Of a stretch of 64,000 nucleotides of DNA, positions 29,246 to 60,747 are shown one piece after another (position 1 is the first letter of the stretch; each line of letters begins with the position of its first letter). The stretch spans positions 34,781 to 98,780 of the forward strand of contig JAFTXJ010000018.1 of NCBI GenBank assembly GCA_017461625.1, read 5' to 3'. The notes under the pieces are model-generated. The model saw only the letters and a list, made by a program, of their open reading frames with translations. It had not been told where the DNA came from and made no database searches. This DNA is from Clostridia bacterium (lineage in GTDB: Bacteria; Bacillota; Clostridia; Oscillospirales; Acutalibacteraceae). A program made the translations under genes and the position numbers.

Positions 29246-29322
29246 CCGCCCGTAGCACAGTTGGATAGTGCGTCAGACTCCGATTCTGAAGGCCGGGGGT
29301 TCGAATCCCTTCGGGCGGGCCA
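29246..29322 (+). tRNA. tRNA-Arg (anticodon CCG)
   Basis: Hand-folded cloverleaf. Acceptor CCGCCCG/CGGGCGG; D arm GCAC-AGTTGGATA-GTGC; anticodon arm TCAGA-CTCCGAT-TCTGA; T arm GGGGG-TTCGAAT-CCCTT; encoded GCCA 3' end. Confidence 0.88.
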
Positions 29323-40635: not shown

Positions 40636-40850
40636 TTTTTGTTTCACCTCTCCATACTTTAAGTAAGTGGTGCATATGCGAGAAAATCCCTGCCCACGAA
40701 ACCGTAGGCAGGGATATACATACAAAATTATTCTGTATGTTCCTAACCTCGGCAGGTGGGGTTTACCCATTATGCATTAAGCACCTGCTGTCTTAAGTAA
40801 AAAGAACAGCTTAGTTATAATACCACACGAATTGCTTCGTGTCAAGTATT
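40636..40850 (-). ncRNA. rplJ 5' leader (L10-leader-type autoregulatory attenuator) including an intrinsic terminator at about 40683-40714
   Basis: 215-nt untranslated gap. Minus-strand hairpins are GCAGGTG...CACCTGC (40752-40788) and TCCCTGCC-tacggtttcgtg-GGCAGGGA followed by TTTTCT. Confidence 0.55.
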
Positions 40851-49129: not shown

Positions 49130-49606
49130 TCATCTGATTTTTACTTTAAAATCTGTGGAACATCTTGGGCAACAAACCGTATGTTCACCCTTGCGTTTAG
49201 GCAATCTGATTGTTGCCTGACAGTTAGGGCATTTTTTAAAAACGTGAGTTTTTCTGTCTCTGAATCTCATCTTTAAAGCATCAATTTTCTTTTTGAAATT
49301 TGACGGCTTTTTAGGAGTAATATCATAAGGATTTCGGCTGAAATCTTTGCTCTTTATTTTGGAAATTATCTGCAAAAACTTTGCATTTTCTTTTTGCCTC
49401 TGATACAGATTTTTTGAAAAGAATCTGTACATTGTAAGCACAAAAAACACCAATGTAAAAACTGAATAAATTCTTGAATTTATAAACCAATCCGCAACCT
49501 CAAGAATCAGACTGAAAATAACCATCGCAAAATATAAATCGTCAGAGCCGTTTCTCCCCCTCATAAACTCCATAAACTTAAATTTGAGATTATTCAATTC
49601 ATTCAC
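49130..49606 (-). CDS. Membrane protein with C-terminal zinc ribbon
   Basis: Two TM segments followed by CPNC...CCPRC. Confidence 0.6.
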   Translation of the reverse strand: MNELNNLKFKFMEFMRGRNGSDDLYFAMVIFSLILEVADWFINSRIYSVFTLVFFVLTMYRFFSKNLYQRQKENAKFLQIISKIKSKDFSRNPYDITPKKPSNFKKKIDALKMRFRDRKTHVFKKCPNCQATIRLPKRKGEHTVCCPRCSTDFKVKIR

Positions 49607-50897
49607 CTAACTTTTTAATCACTTCTTTGTAGTGATTACCTTTGTATTCAAAATTTTTATACACATTGTAGCTTGATGCCGCAGGAGAAAGCAAGCAGCT
49701 CTTTCCCTTTGCAGTCAACTCAAATGCTGACCCCACAGCGTGTTCCATATCCGTTGCCTTGACCATTGTCTTTTTGCAACCTGCTTCAGTAAGCCTGTCA
49801 ATAATACTGTGGCCTGTTTCGGGCATACCGATAAGATTTGACACAGGGCAGGAAATCAGATATTTTTCAAATTCATCATAGTCGATACCTCTGTCAAGTC
49901 CGCCAAAAATCAGAGTGTCAACGTCACCAATCGCCTCAACTCCGCACTCAACTGCATGAGGGATTGTTGCAATACTGTCGTTAAAAAATTTAACGCCCTT
50001 AAACTCACCAACAGGCTCCAGGCGATGAGGTATTCCCTTAAAATTTTCAACACCCTTTTTAACTGCATCCTTGCTGATGCCGAGAATTTCTGCAACCTTG
50101 GCGGCAAAGAAAATATCCTGATGAGTATGAACACCTAAAAGTCTGCCGTTAAGTGTTGTAAGACTTTGCAAAAATTCATCACTCTGTACCGCACTTACAG
50201 CGATTTTTTGACCCATTGTCACGCTAAAATCAACCACTCCGGTCAAATCCTGATCAGGGTTATAAACGAGATAATCGTCTTCACTTTGGTGATTCATTAT
50301 ATTAAGCTTTGCACCCACATAGCCCTCAAAGCCGTTGTAATGGTCAAGATGCTCGGGGTAAACGTTTGTAAGCACAGCAATATGAGGAGAAGTGCGTGTG
50401 AACTCAAGCTGATGCGATGACATTTCAATCACTGCAATCTTGCCTTCACTTGCATCAATAACATCAAAAACAGGTACACCGATGTTGCCGATAAGGCAGG
50501 TATCTTTACCAGAAGCAGCAATCACTTCATAAATCAGTGTTGAGGTTGTGGTTTTTCCCTTTGTGCCTGTGATACCGATTTTCATACAAGGGGCATATTT
50601 CAAAAACAAATCCGTCTGACAGGTTATTGTAACGCCCTCGGGGATTTCAACATCTCTCACCGAAATACCGGGGGTTTTCATAACGATATCATAATCCTTC
50701 ATTGCTTCCATATAGTTTTCGCCTGTGTGAAGGGTTACGTTCAGGTCATCAAGGTTTATTTCTTTCATATCAGCAATACCCAACTGCTTTTCGGGCAGGT
50801 ATTTGCGAATATAGTTATAGGTTGAAATTCCCTCACGACCAAATCCCATAATAAGAACTTTTTTATTTTTATAAAAATCAATAAGCGACTGACACAT
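49599..50897 (-). CDS. murD: UDP-N-acetylmuramoyl-L-alanine--D-glutamate ligase
   Basis: GITGTKGKTTT P-loop and Mur ligase domains. ATG 50897 (MCQSL) lies 9 nt after GGAG. Confidence 0.93.
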   Translation of the reverse strand: MCQSLIDFYKNKKVLIMGFGREGISTYNYIRKYLPEKQLGIADMKEINLDDLNVTLHTGENYMEAMKDYDIVMKTPGISVRDVEIPEGVTITCQTDLFLKYAPCMKIGITGTKGKTTTSTLIYEVIAASGKDTCLIGNIGVPVFDVIDASEGKIAVIEMSSHQLEFTRTSPHIAVLTNVYPEHLDHYNGFEGYVGAKLNIMNHQSEDDYLVYNPDQDLTGVVDFSVTMGQKIAVSAVQSDEFLQSLTTLNGRLLGVHTHQDIFFAAKVAEILGISKDAVKKGVENFKGIPHRLEPVGEFKGVKFFNDSIATIPHAVECGVEAIGDVDTLIFGGLDRGIDYDEFEKYLISCPVSNLIGMPETGHSIIDRLTEAGCKKTMVKATDMEHAVGSAFELTAKGKSCLLSPAASSYNVYKNFEYKGNHYKEVIKKLGE

Positions 50898-50967
50898 AAT
50901 TAACATCTCCGATGTGATAAAGTATGATGGTTTAATATGAACTTTTTGTAATCAAAGTCTTAATTTT

Positions 50968-51193: not shown

Positions 51194-51382
51194 TTAAAAC
51201 TCGCTTTCTGCTATGCAACGCTTTGTGCTGATAAGCGAACCTGCTTCAACAACACCGTTTTCACATCCGCACCACGGACAATGGATATGTTCCATTGGAG
51301 CACGCAGGTCAGGAGTGACGGGAATTGATGTATCCCTGACCACTTCAAACCTTTTATAACACCCTGCACATTGCTTTTTCAT
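51194..51382 (-). CDS. Small Cys-rich (zinc-ribbon-like) protein
   Basis: MKKQCAGCYK...HCPWCGC. GGGGTG lies upstream of ATG 51382. It abuts the DUF3006 gene. Confidence 0.45.
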   Translation of the reverse strand: MKKQCAGCYKRFEVVRDTSIPVTPDLRAPMEHIHCPWCGCENGVVEAGSLISTKRCIAESEF

Positions 51383-51605
51383 TCGATAACACCCCATTGT
51401 ATTTTATATACTTATTATAACTTTTAACTAATAATCTGTCAACGACCTTAAAAGGGCAAAATGTTTTTTTAAATCAAAGTGGCAATATGCACTAAATTTC
51501 TTTATTTCAAGCCCTTTTTTCGTTGTTTTTTATCGTTAAAATATACAAAGTTGATTTTTTTATACATCTTATATTGACCAAATTGTAGAAAAAGAGTTTT
51601 AACCC

Positions 51606-51633
51606 TTGTTTTTGCAAAAAAGTGTGTTATAAT
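51606..51633 (+). promoter_or_regulatory. Putative promoter of the ilv-leu operon
   Basis: TTGTTT, 16 nt, TGtTATAAT (extended -10), about 30 nt upstream of the leader-peptide SD. Confidence 0.45.
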
Positions 51634-51667
51634 ATCTGCAATTAATATGGAGTTGTGAGGAATTAAA

Positions 51668-51784
51668 ATGTTTTCATTCGCATCACAATTGGGAATAATA
51701 ATTATTAACGTTATCAATCTCGTGGTCGTGACCCTAATTGATAACGCAAAAGATTATGCCCCAAGGTGTCAGAAAGCAGTTTAA
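51668..51784 (+). CDS. Candidate ilv-leu leader peptide (38 aa, Ile/Val/Leu-rich)
   Basis: SD GAGGA lies 7 nt upstream. Sequence MFSFASQLGIIIINVINLVVVTLIDNAKDYAPRCQKAV has 13 of 17 residues at positions 8-24 branched-chain. It is followed by terminator hairpins before ilvB. Confidence 0.6.
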   Translation: MFSFASQLGIIIINVINLVVVTLIDNAKDYAPRCQKAV

Positions 51785-51831
51785 TTAAAGCCCCACGGAA
51801 TAATACCAAGGGTTTTTATTATACATACTCG

Positions 51832-51870
51832 AAGCCTATGGTTTAATCTTTAAGCCATAGGCTTTTATTT
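51832..51870 (+). terminator. Attenuator terminator in the ilvB leader
   Basis: AAGCCTATGG-tttaatctttaag-CCATAGGCTT followed by TTATTT, 34 nt upstream of the ilvB ATG. A weaker AAAGCCC...GGGTTTTT hairpin sits at 51787-51817. Confidence 0.65.
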
Positions 51871-51903
51871 ACGAAACGCAACTCTCCACAGAAAGGAAAC
51901 GCT

Positions 51904-53571
51904 ATGAAATTAACTGGTGCTCAGATTCTTATTGAAACCCTTATTGAGCAAGGTGTTGATACCATTTTCGGTTACCCCGGCGGCTCTGTTCTTGATATTT
52001 ATGATGAGCTTTATAAAAACGCTGACAGAATCAATCACGTCATTTCTGCTCACGAGCAAGGTGCTGCTCACGCCGCTGAAGGTTATGCAAGGGCTTCGGG
52101 CAGATTAGGTGTTGTTCTTGCCACATCAGGCCCCGGTGCCACCAACCTTGTTACCGGTATTGCAGATGCCAATCTTGACTCAACCCCTTTGCTTGCCATC
52201 ACAGGTAATGTTGGTACTGCAGTTTTAGGCAGTGACGGATTTCAGGAGGTTGACATCGTAGGTGTGACCTACCCCATTGTCAAGCACAGCTATCAGGTTA
52301 AAGATGTTACCAAGCTCGCTGACACAATCCGCGAAGCAATGCAGATTGCACAGTCAGGCAGACCGGGTCCCGTACTTATTGATATTCCCAAAGATGTTCA
52401 GTTAGCATCCACAGATTTTGAAAACAAAGAAAAGGTTGCTCTTTTTGACAACCCTCCTTATGATGAGGAGCTTATTGATAAAGCTGTTGAAATGATTGCT
52501 CAGAGCAAACGCCCATTTATCTATTGCGGTGGTGGTGCAGCTAAAGAAAGATGCTGCCATGACATTATGGCTTTTTCAGAAAAGATTGATGCCCCTATCG
52601 GCACAAGTATGATGGGTCTTGCCTCAATTCCCGCTTCATTCAAAAACGGTTTAGGTATGTGCGGCATGCACGGTCATTACGCTTCAACAGCAGCAATGTA
52701 TGAGTCAGATTTGATTATTGCTATGGGTGTACGCTTCAGTGACAGAGCCACAGGCGATAAGAAAAAGTTCTCTCTTGATAAAAAAATCATTCATATTGAC
52801 ATTGACCCTGCCGAAATCAGCAAAAATATTTCAGTAAATCTCGGCATCACAGGCGACCTTAAAGAAGTTCTCGCTGCAATTAACGAGAAAACCTCTGAAA
52901 GCAAAAAGCCTGAATGGATGGCAAAGATTGACGAATTCAGAAAATACGAAGAAGAAAACACTTACATAAGCCCTAACAAGCTTACACCTTATGATATTAT
53001 TGATGCAGTTAATGCAATCAAGGATGAATATTCACCCGTAAGCACTGACGTTGGTCAGCACCAGCTCTGGACTTCACAGAGGAACAAGGTTCACCATTCA
53101 AAAACCTTCATCACAAGTGGCGGTCTTGGTACAATGGGATTTGGTATGGGTGCCGCAATCGGTGCGGCTGTTGCAACAGGCAAAACAAGCATCCTTTACA
53201 CAGGTGACGGCAGCTTCGGTATGAATCTTAATGAGCTTGCCACAGCAGTGTCACAAAATCTTCCGTTAGTTGTTGTTCTTTTCAACAACGGTGTTCTCGG
53301 CAATGTTCGCCAGTGGCAGACTATGTTCTACGGTGAGCGTTATTCACAGACCACCCTCAACCGTAAAACAGATTTCGTTAAGCTTGCAGAAGCTTTCGGA
53401 GCAAAAGGCTTCAGAGCTGATGACAAAGATTCCCTCAACGAAGCTCTTAAAGAAGCTTTTGCTTCAAAGAGCCCCTGCGTTGTTGAATGTATAATCGACA
53501 AAGACGAAATGGTTCTTCCTATGATTCCTCCCGGAAAGTCCATTGACAGTCTGCTTATGCGATTCAGATAA
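51904..53571 (+). CDS. ilvB: Acetolactate synthase large subunit
   Basis: 555 aa with TPP motif GGLGTMGFGMGAAIGA...GDGSFGMN. Confidence 0.96.
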   Translation: MKLTGAQILIETLIEQGVDTIFGYPGGSVLDIYDELYKNADRINHVISAHEQGAAHAAEGYARASGRLGVVLATSGPGATNLVTGIADANLDSTPLLAITGNVGTAVLGSDGFQEVDIVGVTYPIVKHSYQVKDVTKLADTIREAMQIAQSGRPGPVLIDIPKDVQLASTDFENKEKVALFDNPPYDEELIDKAVEMIAQSKRPFIYCGGGAAKERCCHDIMAFSEKIDAPIGTSMMGLASIPASFKNGLGMCGMHGHYASTAAMYESDLIIAMGVRFSDRATGDKKKFSLDKKIIHIDIDPAEISKNISVNLGITGDLKEVLAAINEKTSESKKPEWMAKIDEFRKYEEENTYISPNKLTPYDIIDAVNAIKDEYSPVSTDVGQHQLWTSQRNKVHHSKTFITSGGLGTMGFGMGAAIGAAVATGKTSILYTGDGSFGMNLNELATAVSQNLPLVVVLFNNGVLGNVRQWQTMFYGERYSQTTLNRKTDFVKLAEAFGAKGFRADDKDSLNEALKEAFASKSPCVVECIIDKDEMVLPMIPPGKSIDSLLMRFR

Positions 53572-53583
53572 GGGGGTTATGAA

Positions 53584-54078
53584 ATGAAAAGATTTGTTAT
53601 CGGTATGTTGGTTTCTAACCAGTCAGGTGTTTTAACAAGAATTTCAGGTATGTTCTCCCGCCGAGGCTTTAACATTGACAGCCTTACAGTTGGTGTTACA
53701 GAAAACCCCGACCTTTCAAGAATGACTGTTACAATGACAGGCTCGGAATATGAACGTGACCAGATGTTAAAGCAGCTTGGTAAGCTCTTTGATGTTAAAG
53801 AAATTAAAGAAATTGAAACCTCAATAGCAATCAACCGTGAGCTTGCAATCGTTAAGGTTAAGGCAAATCCTGCCGACCGACTTGAGGTGCTCACTGTTGC
53901 TAACACCTTCGGTGCAAAGGTTGTTGACCTTTCAGCTGAAACCATCTGCTTTGAAAAAACAGGTGAAAGCAACAAGCTCGATTCGTTTGTTGAGCTTCTC
54001 AAACCCTACGGTATAGTAGAGATGTGCCGCACCGGTCTTGTAGCAATTGACCGTGGCAGCACAACCCTTAAAAAATAA
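53584..54078 (+). CDS. ilvN: Acetolactate synthase small (regulatory) subunit
   Basis: ACT domain GMLVSNQSGVLTRISGMFSRRGFNIDSLTVG. Confidence 0.95.
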   Translation: MKRFVIGMLVSNQSGVLTRISGMFSRRGFNIDSLTVGVTENPDLSRMTVTMTGSEYERDQMLKQLGKLFDVKEIKEIETSIAINRELAIVKVKANPADRLEVLTVANTFGAKVVDLSAETICFEKTGESNKLDSFVELLKPYGIVEMCRTGLVAIDRGSTTLKK

Positions 54079-54106
54079 ACAAATAAATTATTATTCAAAG
54101 GAGTAA

Positions 54107-55102
<996 letters not shown>

Positions 55103-55115
55103 TTATTCCTATTTT

Positions 55116-55194
55116 CGCCCTGTCTGCCCAACGGCAGACAGGGTGTGCAGGGTTTATCTGAGAATTTATTTTTTGAGTTCTGAGATAAACCCTG
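55116..55194 (+). other. Two strong inverted repeats in the ilvC-cimA spacer
   Basis: Hairpin 1 is CCCTGTCTGCC-caac-GGCAGACAGGG (55118-55143). Hairpin 2 is CAGGGTTTATCTGAGAA...TTCTGAGATAAACCCTG (55148-55194, 17 bp with 1 mismatch). Neither is followed by a T-run. Confidence 0.6.
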
Positions 55195-55213
55195 TAAGAA
55201 AGGAGCTGAATAT

Positions 55214-56791
55214 ATGTCCGATTTCAAGAAAATCGAGATTTTCGACTCCACGCTCCGTGACGGCTCACAGGGTGAGGGAATCTCTTTTTCCGTTCAGGAC
55301 AAACTTAAAATCGCAACAATTCTTGATGAATTCGGTGTTACATACATTGAAGCCGGCAACCCCGGTTCAAATCCCAAAGAGCTTCGCTTTTTTGAAGAGC
55401 TGAAGCACGTTGAATTCAAAAATGCAAAGCTTTGTGCTTTCGGCAGTACAGCCAGAGCAGGTAAGCCCGTTTGTGAGGATGCAAACATCATTGCTCTTCT
55501 TTCAGCAAACACACCTGCGGTTGCCATATTCGGCAAAACATGGGATTTGCATGTTACCGAAATTCTTCATATTTCTTTGGAAGACAACAAAAAAATTGTA
55601 AAAGACACCCTTGCATACCTTAAGGAGCAAGGAAAAGAGGTTATATTTGATGCCGAACATTTCTACGACGGTTATAAAAATAATCCGTCTTATGCTCTTG
55701 AAGTGCTTAGTTGTGCAGTTGAAGGCGGTGCGGATGTGCTTGCCCTTTGTGACACAAACGGTGGTTGCCTCCCTGATGAAATTTCACAAATCACATCAGA
55801 TGTTACGAAAGCTTTCCCGAATGTAAGAGTGGGTATCCATTGCCACAACGATACAGGCTGTGCTGTTGCCAACTCAATGTCAGCAGTTAAAAGCGGTGCC
55901 GTTCAGGTTCAGGGAACATTCGTAGGCTACGGTGAAAGATGCGGTAATGCAGACCTCAGCACAATCATCGCAAACCTTGCTTTAAAGTGCGGTTATGATG
56001 TGAGTGTTGACCTCACTCAGCTTCGCCTCACCGCCCGCAAGATTGCAGAGATTTCAAATGTCCGCCTTAATCACAATCACCCATATGTGGGTAAAAGTGC
56101 CTTCGGTCACAAGGCAGGAATGCATATTGACGGCGTGCAGAAATGTTCACGCTCTTTTGAACATGTTCCTCCCGAATCGGTTGGTAATGAAAGAAAGTTC
56201 CTTATGAGCGAGGTTGCAGGCAGAGGCACTGTTTTGCCTAAGATTCAGAAATTTGCCCCTGAGCTTGATAAAAAATCACCCGAAACAGGCATTATCACCG
56301 AGGAGCTAAAAAAGAGAGAAAACGCAGGCTACCACTACGAGGCTGCCGAAGCAAGCTTTGACTTGTTTGTAAAAAAGCAGTTGGGCCTTTACAGACCTCA
56401 TTTTAATGTTATTATGTATAAAGTGCTTGACGACTTCCCCGCACCCGACGGCGAACAACAGTCAAACGCTATGATTAAAATTGAAGTTGACGGCAAGATC
56501 ACAATGTCCTGTGCATCAGGTAACGGTCCCGTTAACGCATTGGATAAGGCAATGAGAGATGCTCTCTCCTGTTTCTATCCCGAAATCAGTGATATGCACC
56601 TTATGGACTATAAGGTTCGTGTTATTGAGTCAGGTCTCACAACCGACTCAAAAACCAGAGTTATGATTGACTCTGCTGACTCAAATTCGGTATTTACCAC
56701 CATCGGAGTTTCCAGCGATATTATTAAGGCGAGCTTCAGGGCTCTGGTGGACTCTTTTGAATACAAATTATCCAAAAAGGAGAATGAATAA
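55214..56791 (+). CDS. cimA: (R)-citramalate synthase (CimA, LeuA-related TIGR00977-type)
   Basis: [20 protein letters not shown]...[13 protein letters not shown] matches the CimA-type pattern as I recall it, rather than LeuA (RDGEQ...IEAGF). 525 aa with a C-terminal regulatory domain. Confidence 0.75.
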
Positions 56792-58053
56792 TGGGAATGA
56801 CAATGACACAAAAAATCCTCGCTGCTCACGCAGGTCTTGACTCAGTGAGTGCAGGTCAGCTCATTCTTGCAGACATCGACCTTGTTTTGGGCAACGACGT
56901 TACAACACCCGTTGCCGTATCAGAATACAAAAAGCTCGGTCTTGACAAAGTGTTTGACAAGAATAAGGTTGCAATGGTAATGGACCATTTCACACCTAAC
57001 AAAGACATCAAAGCTGCAACACAGTGCAAAATGTGCCGTGAATTTGCAGGCGATATGGACATCGTAAACTACTTCGACGTTGGTGATATGGGCGTTGAAC
57101 ACGCAATCCTCCCCGAAAAAGGTCTTGTAGTTTCAGGCGACGTTGTAATCGGCGCAGACTCTCATACCTGCACATATGGTGCTCTCGGCGCTTTCTCAAC
57201 AGGCGTTGGTTCAACTGATATGGCTTGCGGTATGGCAACAGGTAAGGCTTGGTTCAAGGTTCCTTCAGCTATCAAATTTGAGCTTAAAGGCGAGCTTCAG
57301 CCAAACGTTTACGGTAAAGACGTTATCCTTCACATCATCGGTATGATTGGTGTAGACGGTGCACTTTACAAATCAATGGAATTCTGTGGCGAAGGCGTTC
57401 ACACACTTTCAGTTAGTGAAAGACTTTGCATGGCTAATATGGCTATTGAAGCAGGCGGTAAGAACGGTATCTTTGAAGTTGACGATAAGACAATCGAATT
57501 CATCAAAGAAGCAGGCGGCAAAGAGCCAACAATTTATAAAGCTGACGATGACGCTGTTTATGATGAAACTTACGTTATCGACCTTTCAGAAATTCGCCCC
57601 ACAGTAGCATTCCCCCACCTTCCCGAAAACACACGCACCTTTGACCAGATCGGCGAAGTTAAAATTGACCAGGTTGTTATCGGCTCCTGCACAAACGGCA
57701 GACTCGAAGACCTTGTTGTTGCCGCTAACATCCTCAAAGGCAAAAAGGTTAAGAAGGGTGTTCGCACAATCGTAATCCCCGCAACTAACAAGATTTATCT
57801 TGACGCTATGGAAATGGGACTTCTCAAAATCTTCATCGAAGCAGGTGCTATCGTTTCAACACCTACCTGCGGACCCTGCCTCGGCGGTCATATGGGTATT
57901 CTTGCTGAAGGTGAAAGAGCAGTTGCCACAACCAACCGTAACTTCGTTGGCCGTATGGGTCACCCCAAATCAGAAGTTTACCTTGCAAGCCCTGCAGTTG
58001 CTGCTGCATCAGCTATCACAGGTAAGATTTCTTCACCAGAGGAGGTTATGTAA
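56791..58053 (+). CDS. leuC: 3-isopropylmalate/citramalate dehydratase large subunit
   Basis: Fe-S ligand contexts GADSHTC, GSCTNGR and CGPCLG. Confidence 0.95.
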
Positions 58054-58055
58054 TA

Positions 58056-58550
58056 ATGTTATTTGAAGGTAAAGTTATTAAATACGGCGATAACGTTGAC
58101 ACTGACGTTATTATTCCTGCCCGTTATCTTAACACTATTGATAAAAAAGAGCTTGCTGCTCACTGCATGGAAGACCTTGATGCAACATTCGTAAACCGTG
58201 TTGAAGACGGCGACATTATGGTTGCAGGCTACAACTTCGGCTGCGGTTCTTCACGTGAGCACGCTCCCATCGCTATTAAAGCAAGCGGTATTTCTCTTGT
58301 AATCGCAAAGAGCTTTGCAAGAATTTTCTACCGTAACTCAATCAACATCGGTCTCCCCATCATCGAGTGCCCCGAAGCTGTTGACGCTATCAGCGAAGGC
58401 GACAAGCTCAAGGCTGATATGGACGCAGGTGTTATCTACAACCTCACCACAGGTGATGAATACAAGGCTGAGCCGTTCCCTGCATTTATTCAGGAAATTA
58501 TCGCAACAGGCGGTCTTATTGAATCAATCAAAGCAGGTAAAATTAAATAA
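58056..58550 (+). CDS. leuD: 3-isopropylmalate dehydratase small subunit
   Basis: [14 protein letters not shown]. Confidence 0.95.
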
Positions 58551-58571
58551 TTATAAAAGGATCTGACTAAA

Positions 58572-59648
58572 ATGGATTTTAATATTGCTTTACTTAAAGG
58601 CGACGGTATCGGCCCTGAAATAGTTGACAGTGCCGTTGCAGTTTTAGACAAGGTTGCCGCTAAATACGGCCACAAATTCACATTCACACCTTACCTTGCA
58701 GGCGGTTGCGCTATTGATGCAACAGGTATTCCCCTTCCTGAAGAAACCGTTAAAGCTTGCCAGGCAAGTGACAGCGTTCTTCTCGGTGCTGTTGGCGGAC
58801 CTAAGTGGGACACTCTCCCCGGTCACCTTCGCCCCGAAAAGGCTCTTCTCGGTGTTCGTCACGCTCTCGGACTTTACACCAACATCCGCCCTGCAAAGAT
58901 TTACCCCGCACTTAAAGGTGCAAGCCCCCTCCGCCCCGATATCATTGACAACGGCGTTGACATCGTTATGATTCGTGAGCTTACAGGCGGTATCTACTTT
59001 GGTGAAAGAGGCCGCAGACAGGGTGCAGGCGGAGAAGAAGCATTTGACACAGAGTGCTACAGCGAGATGGAAGTTGAAAGAATCGCACGCGTTGCATTTG
59101 AAACAGCAAGAAAAAGAGGCCACGTTGTTACAAGCATCGACAAAGCTAACGTTCTTGAATCTTCAAGACTCTGGAGAGAAGTTGTTCACAGAGTTGCTAA
59201 GGATTATCCTGACTGTGAATGCGTTGATATGCTCGTTGATAACGCAGCAATGCAGCTTGTTAAGAACCCATCTCAGTTTGACGTTGTTGTAACATCAAAT
59301 ATGTTTGGCGATATTCTTTCTGACGAAAGCTCACAGATCACAGGCTCAATCGGTATGCTTGCTTCTGCATCACTTGGTGATACAAAGTGTGGTATGTATG
59401 AGCCTATCCACGGCTCTGCACCTGACATCGCAGGTCAGAACAAGGCTAACCCCATCGCAACAATCCTTTCAGCAGCTATGATGTTCCGTTATTCATTTGA
59501 CCTTGAAGACGAAGCTGTTTGCATTGAAAAGGCAGTTGACGATGTTCTTGAAGCAGGCTACAGAACTGCTGATATTCTCGGCTCAAGCGACACAAAGCCG
59601 CTTTCATGCACTGAGATGACAAAGGTAATTCTTGATTATATTAAATAA
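58572..59648 (+). CDS. leuB: 3-isopropylmalate dehydrogenase
   Basis: [10 protein letters not shown]...[12 protein letters not shown]. Confidence 0.96.
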
Positions 59649-59676
59649 TTTCAGTTTTTGAAAGAAGGAAAATAAG

Positions 59677-60747
59677 ATGCTCGACATCAAAATAGAAAAA
59701 ACCTCATCACCAAAGGCTAAACCTCAGAAGGGTGAGCCTCTCGGCTTCGGTCATATTTTCACTGACCATATGTTCATTATGAACTACACCGAGGGCAAGG
59801 GCTGGTACGATGCAAGAATCGTACCCTACGGCGACCTCACACTCTCACCTGCCGCTATGGTTTTCCACTACGGTCAGGAAATGTTTGAAGGTCTTAAGGC
59901 TTACAAGGGCGTTGACGGAAAGAATTATCTTTTCCGCCCCGATATGAACGCTAAGAGAACAAACGCAACTAACGACCGTCTTTGCATTCCTCAGCTTCCC
60001 GAAGAGGATTTTGTTCAAGCAGTTAAGGCAGTTGTTGAAGTTGATAAAGATTGGATTCCCGAAGAAGAAGGCACTTCCCTTTACATTCGTCCTTTCATTA
60101 TCGCAACTGATGCTTTCCTCGGTGTTGCACCGTCAAAGACATATTTGTTTATGATTATCCTCTCTCCCAGCGGCGCTTACTACGCGAGCGGTCTTGCTCC
60201 TGTTGGTATTTGGATTGAAGATGATTATGTACGCGCAGTTAAAGGCGGTATGGGCTTTGCTAAAACAGGCGGTAACTATGCTGCAAGCCTTGCAGCTCAG
60301 GTTAAAGCTCACGATGACGGTTATTCTCAGGTGCTCTGGCTCGACGGTGTTGAGAGAAAGTATATTGAAGAAGTCGGTGCAATGAACATCTTCTTCAAAA
60401 TCGACGGTAAAATTGTTACTCCTATGCTCAACGGCTCAATTCTTCCCGGTATCACCCGTGACTCTGTAATCAACCTTTGCAAGCACTGGGGTATGGAAGT
60501 TGAAGAGAGAAGAATTTCTGTTGACGAGCTTCTTGAAGCTCAGAAAAATGGAAAGCTCGAAGAAGTTTTCGGCACAGGCACAGCAGCAGTTATCTCCCCT
60601 GTTGGTAAACTTCGTTATAAATACGATGTTATGGAAATCAACGGCGGTGTTATCGGTGAAGTAAGTCAGAAGATTTACGACACCGTAACAGGCATCCAGT
60701 GGGGCAAAATTGACGACCCATTCGGCTGGAGAGTTGAAGTTAAATAA
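59677..60747 (+). CDS. ilvE: Branched-chain amino acid aminotransferase
   Basis: 356 aa, class IV aminotransferase, with FEGLKAY and KTGGNYAAS. Confidence 0.94.
   Translation: MLDIKIEKTSSPKAKPQKGEPLGFGHIFTDHMFIMNYTEGKGWYDARIVPYGDLTLSPAAMVFHYGQEMFEGLKAYKGVDGKNYLFRPDMNAKRTNATNDRLCIPQLPEEDFVQAVKAVVEVDKDWIPEEEGTSLYIRPFIIATDAFLGVAPSKTYLFMIILSPSGAYYASGLAPVGIWIEDDYVRAVKGGMGFAKTGGNYAASLAAQVKAHDDGYSQVLWLDGVERKYIEEVGAMNIFFKIDGKIVTPMLNGSILPGITRDSVINLCKHWGMEVEERRISVDELLEAQKNGKLEEVFGTGTAAVISPVGKLRYKYDVMEINGGVIGEVSQKIYDTVTGIQWGKIDDPFGWRVEVK

Follow-up and report, generated by a model that had tools for sequence, protein, structure and literature searches.

The stretch of DNA analyzed here, which we call the window, comprises 64,000 nucleotides from a Clostridia bacterium, and all coordinates refer to it unless another locus is named. 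A scan of its IlvB protein against one genome per GTDB species placed the window in the Acutalibacteraceae (Oscillospirales, Clostridia), in the lineage of a gut metagenome-assembled genome (MAG) from ruminants. On the forward strand, the window carries an operon of eight genes (51904-60747) that were assigned by NCBIfam equivalog matches above cut-off: ilvB (51904-53571; TIGR00118, 683 bits), ilvN (53584-54078), ilvC (54113-55102), the citramalate synthase gene cimA (55214-56791; TIGR00977, 662 bits), leuC (56791-58053), leuD (58056-58550), leuB (58572-59648) and ilvE (59677-60747). The presence of cimA, and not leuA, indicates threonine-independent isoleucine synthesis via LeuCD and LeuB. 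Our subject is the leader that precedes ilvB, a candidate transcription attenuator that joins a short open reading frame (ORF), rich in codons for branched-chain amino acids (BCAAs), to an intrinsic terminator. For comparison, 500 nt upstream of ilvB were scanned in each of 80 ilvB loci from other genomes, and the window was aligned with seven relatives (L001-L005, L008 and L009) whose IlvB proteins are 84-99% identical to give an alignment of eight sequences, referred to below as the clade.

The leader reading frame, its hairpins and the terminator

Transcription of the leader would start near 51640, judging from a putative promoter at 51606-51633 (+) that we read from the sequence by eye. 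This promoter consists of a -35-like TTGTTT (51606-51611), a 16-nt spacer and an extended -10 element, TGTTATAAT (51625-51633). Its -35 element matches at just three of six positions, which is why a consensus scan missed it; its CTTGT and TATAAT are kept in all eight clade members. 

The leader ORF (51668-51784, +) has 38 codons and a stop codon and encodes the peptide MFSFASQLGIIIINVINLVVVTLIDNAKDYAPRCQKAV. The Shine-Dalgarno (SD) sequence GAGG (51657-51660, +) lies 7 nt 5′ of its ATG, and GTGAGGAA is invariant in the eight-sequence alignment. Four Ile codons, ATA ATA ATT ATT, occupy 51695-51706, three successive Val codons are also present, and 13 of the 17 residues at peptide positions 8-24 are Ile, Leu or Val. 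This density is not a composition effect, because none of 3000 dinucleotide-preserving shuffles of 51641-51903 yielded an ORF with at least 13 such residues in 17 (mean maximum 5.2, standard deviation 2.5). Several of the leader codons are rare in the operon, namely ATA, used twice in the leader (6 of 142 Ile codons in the operon), and CTA (1 of 147 Leu codons); for Val, the leader uses GTG twice (13 of 155 Val codons in the operon) and GTC once (3 of 155). The use of rare codons would sharpen the response, and these choices are also under stem constraint. The operon unites the citramalate route to Ile with the shared Ile/Val steps and therefore suits an Ile/Val sensor, in agreement with the codons of the leader.

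The length of the ORF is 38 codons in all eight clade members, even where indels shift the C-terminal frame. The ORF of L005 carries two compensating indels, which shift its conserved tail nucleotides, GGTGTCAGAA, into another frame and leave its length and the position of its stop codon unchanged. Such a pattern would be expected of a leader peptide, in which selection acts on the RNA and on its being translated, and not of a functional protein.

The leader (51640-51903) folds far better than its shuffles (z = -5.2, 0 of 200). Inside the ORF lies hairpin A, a perfect 10-bp stem of 51709-51718 (CGTTATCAAT) with 51737-51746 (ATTGATAACG) on the forward strand, in which GTTATC, the V-I codons, faces GATAAC, the D-N codons, and which is 97% paired over the eight sequences. 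Its 18-nt loop, CTC GTG GTC GTG ACC CTA, encodes L-V-V-V-T-L. The ORF is followed by the weak spacer hairpin B (51787-51816, +; AAAGCCC...GGGUUUU plus GG/CC), and a U-rich run then extends to 51822. In L009, hairpin B is replaced at the same place by an unrelated 9-bp hairpin, CAAAGCAUA/UAUGCUUUG, an indication that this position requires a hairpin regardless of its sequence. Located in the loop of the antiterminator described in the next section, hairpin B may also be a pause signal. We considered it as a true terminator and rejected this assignment, given its weakness, its replacement in L009 and the much stronger conserved terminator downstream.

This intrinsic terminator (51831-51870, +) is formed by 51831-51846 with 51850-51865, a stem of 15-16 bp with the loop UCU and the tail UUUUAUUU (-20.8 kcal/mol); the hairpin itself covers 51831-51865 and is followed by TTTTATTT. 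The stem is 99% paired in the eight sequences, and all changes in it preserve pairing. Both of its arms are themselves small palindromes. From the end of the terminator to the ilvB ATG there are about 33-34 nt, and the genes upstream of the leader are divergent; therefore, the terminator can act only on the leader transcript, no room is left for a separate ilvB promoter, and ilvB must be read through the terminator.

These results bear out all the sequence features in an initial annotation of this DNA, which had described the SD-preceded ORF of 38 codons, the four Ile codons and 13 of 17 branched-chain residues, the 10-bp hairpin at 51709-51746 with its L-V-V-V-T-L loop, and a weak U-tailed hairpin and a strong one after the stop codon, now placed at 51787-51816 and 51831-51865. 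The annotation had further proposed to look for the ORF, its BCAA run and the hairpins in relatives: the ORF and the run are kept in all seven, and the hairpins are conserved across the eight-sequence alignment.

Alternative pairings and the putative switch

In silico, the leader combines a translatable ORF, clustered codons for the end products, a terminator, an antiterminator made of regions 2 and 3 (2:3), and a region 1 that lies over the regulatory codons. Region 1 (UUGGG AAUAAUAAUUAUU; 51689-51706, +) holds the four Ile codons; in the resting fold, its partner is region 2. Region 2 (AAAGAUUAUGCCCCAAGGUGUC; 51749-51770, +) contains the K-D-Y-A-P codons and has two alternative partners, region 1 on the one hand and, on the other, the 5′ arm and loop of the terminator, which make up region 3 (51831-51851, +). 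The 3′ arm of the terminator is region 4 (51850-51865, +). The resting fold, which is the minimum free energy (MFE) structure, contains the conserved pairs 51689-51693/51760-51764, 51698-51703/51752-51757 and 51705-51706/51749-51750, and this 1:2 fold together with hairpin A amounts to -20.5 kcal/mol.

Because equilibrium folds with masks cannot show switching, we used duplex scans and folded nascent transcripts that stop short of the terminator 3′ arm and have their 5′ part masked by a ribosome. When the transcript ended at 51849 and the ribosome stood at the Ile or Val codons, 51751-51771 paired with the terminator 5′ arm and loop and enclosed hairpin B. Moreover, among all 24-nt windows of the leader, 51748-51771 was predicted to pair most strongly with the terminator 5′ half (-16.8 kcal/mol). 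The core of the 2:3 pairing is formed by AAAGAUUA (51749-51756) with UAAUCUUU (51844-51851), plus GCC with GGU, and the 11-bp core of 51749-51760 with 51840-51851 is paired in all eight clade sequences. Two substitutions were found in it, a compensatory change from U-A to C-G in L005 and a change from A-U to the wobble pair G-U in L008. The compensatory change in L005 breaks the matching 1:2 pair and keeps both 2:3 and 3:4.

Overall, the sequence makes it very probable that the leader is a ribosome-mediated transcription attenuator of the ilvB-ilvN-ilvC-cimA-leuC-leuD-leuB-ilvE operon that senses Ile and Val, and perhaps Leu. From the model we infer the stalling, the kinetics and the amino-acid response as follows. 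Transcription would begin at about 51640, and the leader ORF with its 38 codons would be translated by a ribosome. Given an ample supply of charged Ile-, Val- and Leu-tRNAs, the ribosome would reach the stop codon, and region 1 would re-pair with region 2 around hairpin A. With the 1:2 pairing re-formed, the terminator (51831-51865 and its U tail) would form, and RNA polymerase would stop about 34 nt before ilvB; the same terminated fold is predicted if there is no translation at all. When Ile-tRNA is scarce, the ribosome would stall at ATA ATA ATT ATT, that is, on region 1 itself. Scarcity of Val- or Leu-tRNA would cause it to stall at codons in or beside hairpin A, where it would hold regions 1 and 2 apart. 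In either case, the free region 2 would capture 51840-51851 as this segment emerges, forming the 11 bp and four further pairs (51764-51767/51834-51837). Hairpin B would close the intervening loop, and with the 5′ arm and loop of the terminator occupied, the polymerase would read into the operon.

A wider family of clostridial ilvB leaders

Similar leaders were found in at least 30 further ilvB loci across Clostridia among the 80 scanned, where IlvB is just 52-63% identical. Their elements come in the order SD, Ile/Val-rich upstream ORF (uORF) of about 30 codons, inner hairpin, spacer hairpin and terminator. All 34 leaders have an ORF with a start codon (31 with a clear SD), and the distance from the stop codon of this ORF to the terminator is nearly constant. 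The uORF often ends in ...(I/V)(I/V)DNAYxRCAG followed by a strong hairpin, as exemplified by MLTSLFASVIVVVISIIVIISDNAYRRCAGGGS in L053 and MSFIFSVVVVIVLVGVIVIIDNADRRCAGKGR in L042. Pairing accounts for this conserved tail: its D-N-A codons (GAUAAUGC) have the S-I-I codons (GCAUUAUC) as their partner, and its R-C-A-G codons (CGUUGCGCUG) can form pairs either with S-A-I codons located upstream or with the conserved terminator apex, CAGCAAAACG. Most family members have a hairpin that starts at the stop codon (mean z -1.5; z below -1 in 17 of 25).

A covariance model built from 17 family leaders, with the window clade left out (model R1), gave 26 matches at E up to 1e-4, among them second copies in tandem and copies that precede a different gene about 1 kb 5′ of ilvB. 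Changes on both sides were found in 8 of 10 pairs of the inner hairpin and in 12 of 12 pairs of the terminator, which is the most strongly co-varying part, and 94.9% of the cells in the family stems are paired compared with 81.5% in shuffles (0 of 500). For the antiterminator, we used a register-free partner-swap test, in which the last 39 nt of each uORF were paired with the terminator 5′ half of its own leader and of other leaders. Over 30 leaders, native pairings averaged -17.2 kcal/mol and swapped pairings -12.2 kcal/mol (0 of 5000 permutations); with one representative per sequence type (12 leaders), the values were -18.1 and -12.2 kcal/mol (0 of 20000). The swap test is clear, and by this measure of sequence the 3′ end of the uORF co-evolves with the terminator 5′ half. 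Thus, GUAAAGCU pairs with AGCUUUAC in Oribacterium, and GUUGCGCUG pairs with CAGCAAAAC in the core type. An Rfam search of 19 family loci returned tRNAs only.

The window clade resembles the R1 family in gene context, in the order of elements and in the inner hairpin core, GTTATC with GATAAC, and its peptide pattern IIINVI...IDNA..Y..RC is similar to ...IIVIIDNAYRRC in the R1 family. The two differ in the inner loop (18 nt in the clade compared with 7-10 nt in the family), in regions 2 and 3 (AAAGAUUAUGCC with GGUUUAAUCUUU compared with CGUUGCGCUG with CAGCAAAACG) and in the distance from stop codon to terminator (78-86 nt compared with 49-80 nt). A shared mechanism is well supported, whereas common descent is plausible but unproven. 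A pattern scan of metagenomes for more clade members found three loci, all of the L009 species.

Some family loci depart from the simple arrangement. L035 carries two complete attenuators in tandem before ilvB (2631-2776 and 2792-2963 of that locus), each with its own uORF and terminator, and L040 probably has a tandem arrangement as well (492-628 and 698-826). In L015 (1831-1997) and L023 (1781-1962), the family leader lies about 1 kb 5′ of ilvB, before an ORF of about 320 aa that precedes ilvB; hence, the family is not bound to ilvB as the first gene. In the Oribacterium loci L049, L050 and L055, an extra untranslated stretch of about 265 nt separates the attenuator terminator from ilvB. This stretch might hold a second regulatory element; L049, which was part of the Rfam search, gave no match. 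Additionally, weaker R1 matches, significant or borderline and accompanied by Ile/Val-rich uORFs, occur in bins labeled as non-Firmicutes, namely Coriobacteriia (L017 and L057), Treponema (L037), Verrucomicrobia (L040) and Kiritimatiellia (L066), a distribution that speaks for mis-binning or for an ilvB locus that was transferred horizontally together with its leader.

A broader interpretation, for which we see about equal grounds for acceptance and doubt, is that the window leader is a divergent branch of a large uncatalogued family of Ile/Val attenuators through which the ilvB operons of gut Clostridia are mainly controlled in cis. Its members would occur in Oscillospirales, in Lachnospirales including Oribacterium, in Christensenellales and in other groups, sometimes in tandem and occasionally in bins of other phyla, and would replace the T-boxes and ppGpp riboswitches of other Firmicutes. 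The DNAYxRCAG tail would then be a by-product of RNA pairing, and a role of the nascent chain is also possible.

Evaluation of the model and relation to known systems

Several of our results weigh against the attenuator model. The sole RNA data set with related sequence is a thin metatranscriptome assembly whose contigs carry no information on 3′ ends; one contig of 165 nt spans 51760-51924 and could be either read-through RNA or carry-over of DNA, the locus being contained in DNA metagenomes. The eight-sequence clade shows one compensatory event and did not exceed the shuffle controls, and with only eight close sequences its covariation is therefore suggestive and not significant. In the wider family, the antiterminator in a fixed register has 82.5% of its cells paired (slid controls, 11-52%), and four of its pairs are changed on both sides, a number that 23 of 500 shuffles reach. 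This modest count is partly explained by the register of Oribacterium, which shifts by one column, together with strong sequence conservation. The window leader itself scores a nonsignificant 12.7 bits with model R1 (51698-51822, +), with the inner hairpin alone aligning, and in a 611-kb search the clade members reached 13.3-13.5 bits (E about 2.5).

Competing structures and energetics add to these points. The segment 51794-51819, which contains the 3′ arm of hairpin B, also pairs with the terminator 5′ arm (-14.4 kcal/mol); if formed, this pairing would give the wrong logic, as it would be freed by a ribosome on the stop codon. The terminator 3′ arm alone forms a 5-bp hairpin (51852-51864; AAGCC-AUA-GGCUU) followed by the U tail, and the terminator scan called this mini-hairpin and its T run instead of the full stem. 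Some residual termination may consequently persist in the antiterminated state. Finally, when a ribosome mask was placed at eight codon positions, the equilibrium fold always retained the terminator in the MFE structure, and the antiterminated state lay 10-14 kcal/mol above the MFE even with the mask. Because the equilibrium always favors the terminator, switching must be kinetic, with the antiterminator as a short-lived kinetic trap. Classical attenuators have comparable energetics, and their switching is likewise kinetic. Of the alternative folds, whose modeling the initial annotation had suggested, those of nascent transcripts yielded a conserved antiterminator, and those with equilibrium masks never removed the terminator.

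We also considered whether the same sequence could serve another mechanism. The folding of the leader, which is much better than that of shuffles (z = -5.2), would be in keeping with hairpins that respond to a small ligand (such as ppGpp, Ile or Leu), to a tRNA or to a protein without a ribosome, the ORF being incidental; ppGpp riboswitches and T-boxes have been reported for ilvB in many Firmicutes (PMC10272879, PMC6123439), and RNA pairing fully accounts for the conserved tail of the peptide. However, a search of Rfam 15 gave no match in the window leader, either at the gathering score or with E up to 10, to a T-box, a ykkC/ppGpp riboswitch or an amino-acid leader family, and the T-box core motif, GGTGGNACCRCG, is absent from all 80 ilvB upstream regions, which agrees with the earlier remark that no T-box features are visible. 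Moreover, despite divergence and indels, none of the 34 leaders has lost the ORF or its start codon, and a clear SD is present in 31; in every case, the strand competing for region 2 contains the Ile/Val codons; and there is no conserved unpaired pocket or aptamer-type junction. We regard such ribosome-free switching as quite improbable. A leader peptide that does sense BCAAs could, in turn, act through Rho-dependent termination, mRNA stability or the initiation of ilvB translation. Long-range contacts exist, since the MFE fold pairs the SD-proximal 51650-51657 with 51822-51831, and the terminator hairpins of L029, L063 and L011 have poor U tails. In the window, however, the terminator is canonical, strong and U-tailed, and the ilvB SD (AAGGA near 51892) lies outside all predicted stems; across the family, the terminator stems co-vary in all 12 pairs. 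An output of this kind is therefore very unlikely in our judgment.

The peptide itself, with a hydrophobic core of 17 residues, a polar, charged tail and a strong terminator after its ORF, has the outline of a small membrane protein, such as a type I toxin or a holin-like peptide, that would have its own terminator and neighbor ilvB by chance. A match to the Pfam family Hol_Tox (PF16935) fits this outline, but it is the sole Pfam match and falls below threshold (E = 0.11; 12.8 bits compared with a cut-off of 23.3), and it most likely reflects the composition of the hydrophobic run. The tail of the L005 peptide, whose nucleotides are kept but read in another frame, is not under protein-level selection, and the element always lies directly 5′ of BCAA genes in distant taxa. 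Additionally, no room exists for an ilvB promoter after the terminator, the 3′ end of the uORF co-varies with the terminator, and no promoter-like site for an antisense RNA was found within 51640-51900. A membrane peptide encoded next to ilvB by chance is hardly credible in light of this evidence, and we retain the attenuator model.

The region upstream of the leader has several features of its own. The divergent intergenic region spans 51398-51903, and an ORF of 67 aa (51194-51397, -) and a murD-like gene (49599-50906, -) diverge from ilvB. A perfect consensus promoter (51414-51442, -; TTGACA, 17 nt, TATAAT) faces these two genes. A block at 51540-51600, 5′ of the leader promoter, is conserved throughout the clade, even in its most distant member, L009, and could be an UP element or the site of a regulator. 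It contains AAATTGTAGAAAAAG, which, judged by eye, matches the CodY box at 10 of 15 positions; a search for CodY boxes with up to three mismatches found none near the leader promoter, and the total in the window was under the chance expectation. The sole Rfam matches in the window are a ribosomal protein L10 leader (RF00557, 66.5 bits; 40672-40815, -) and a tRNA gene (29246-29319, +).

Ribosome-mediated attenuation of ilv operons is textbook knowledge in Escherichia coli. The E. coli leaders ivbL (of ilvBN) and ilvL (of ilvGMEDA) encode 32-aa peptides with 11 or 15 BCAAs (PMC6123439). Like them, the window leader has a BCAA-rich peptide, a terminator before the first ilv gene, the 1:2, 2:3 and 3:4 pairings and a predicted multivalent response to Ile, Val and Leu; it differs in its clostridial host, in having no sequence similarity to them and no Rfam leader match, and in its architecture, in which the Ile codons constitute region 1, the Val codons lie in the loop of hairpin A and the loop of the antiterminator encloses a spacer hairpin. 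Among Firmicutes, attenuation of ilv-leu by leader peptides has been shown in Staphylococcus aureus and Listeria monocytogenes and predicted in Lactococcus and Streptococcus (PMC6123439, PMC5794164), and in 2010 leader peptides in this phylum were still reported as notable (PMC2965389). The attenuators of S. aureus (Kaiser et al. 2018, PMC5794164) and Listeria (PMC6123439) likewise take the place of the Bacillus subtilis T-box. They have been demonstrated experimentally, belong to the class Bacilli and act together with CodY, and the S. aureus peptide is Leu-rich; the window sequence, in contrast, is unrelated and has no CodY box, at up to three mismatches, near its promoter.

Attenuation by an ilv leader has also been predicted in Corynebacterium (PMC10272879). 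The Corynebacterium ilvB-II uORF and the ilvB-OMG and Leptospira ilvB motifs, which were found by comparative genomics, share with the window leader a conserved BCAA-rich uORF and a terminator stem before ilvB (PMC10272879, PMC8632094), but they come from other phyla, have other sequences and structures, and none has been reported from Clostridia. The ilv-leu T-box leader of B. subtilis resembles the window leader in that a premature terminator before ilvB is relieved by uncharged BCAA-tRNA; unlike the window leader, which has no T-box signature, it has no uORF and senses uncharged tRNA-Leu directly by RNA-tRNA contacts. The initial annotation had regarded leader-peptide attenuation as a proteobacterial or actinobacterial solution. 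This part of its claim is outdated, as such attenuation is documented in Bacilli, and its other part, that the present case is under-described, stands in that the mechanism appears undescribed in Clostridia. We found no description of leader peptides of this kind in Clostridia in the full-text literature searched, closed-access comparative work being outside that search. The mechanism is ordinary, and the clostridial leader family appears to be uncatalogued, absent from both Rfam 15 and the searched literature.

The understanding of the attenuation mechanism itself is unchanged by these results. Their practical consequences are that ORFs of 30-40 codons before ilvB should be annotated as leader peptides rather than as hypothetical proteins or toxins, that the family covariance model could enter RNA family databases, and that the alternating pairings offer ready designs for BCAA-responsive reporters in anaerobes. 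For the uncultured Acutalibacteraceae of the ruminant gut, the window leader provides a concrete model of how an eight-gene Ile/Val operon would be switched on, and the wider family indicates that Clostridia, and not only Proteobacteria, Actinobacteria and Bacilli, commonly control ilvB by ribosome-mediated attenuation.

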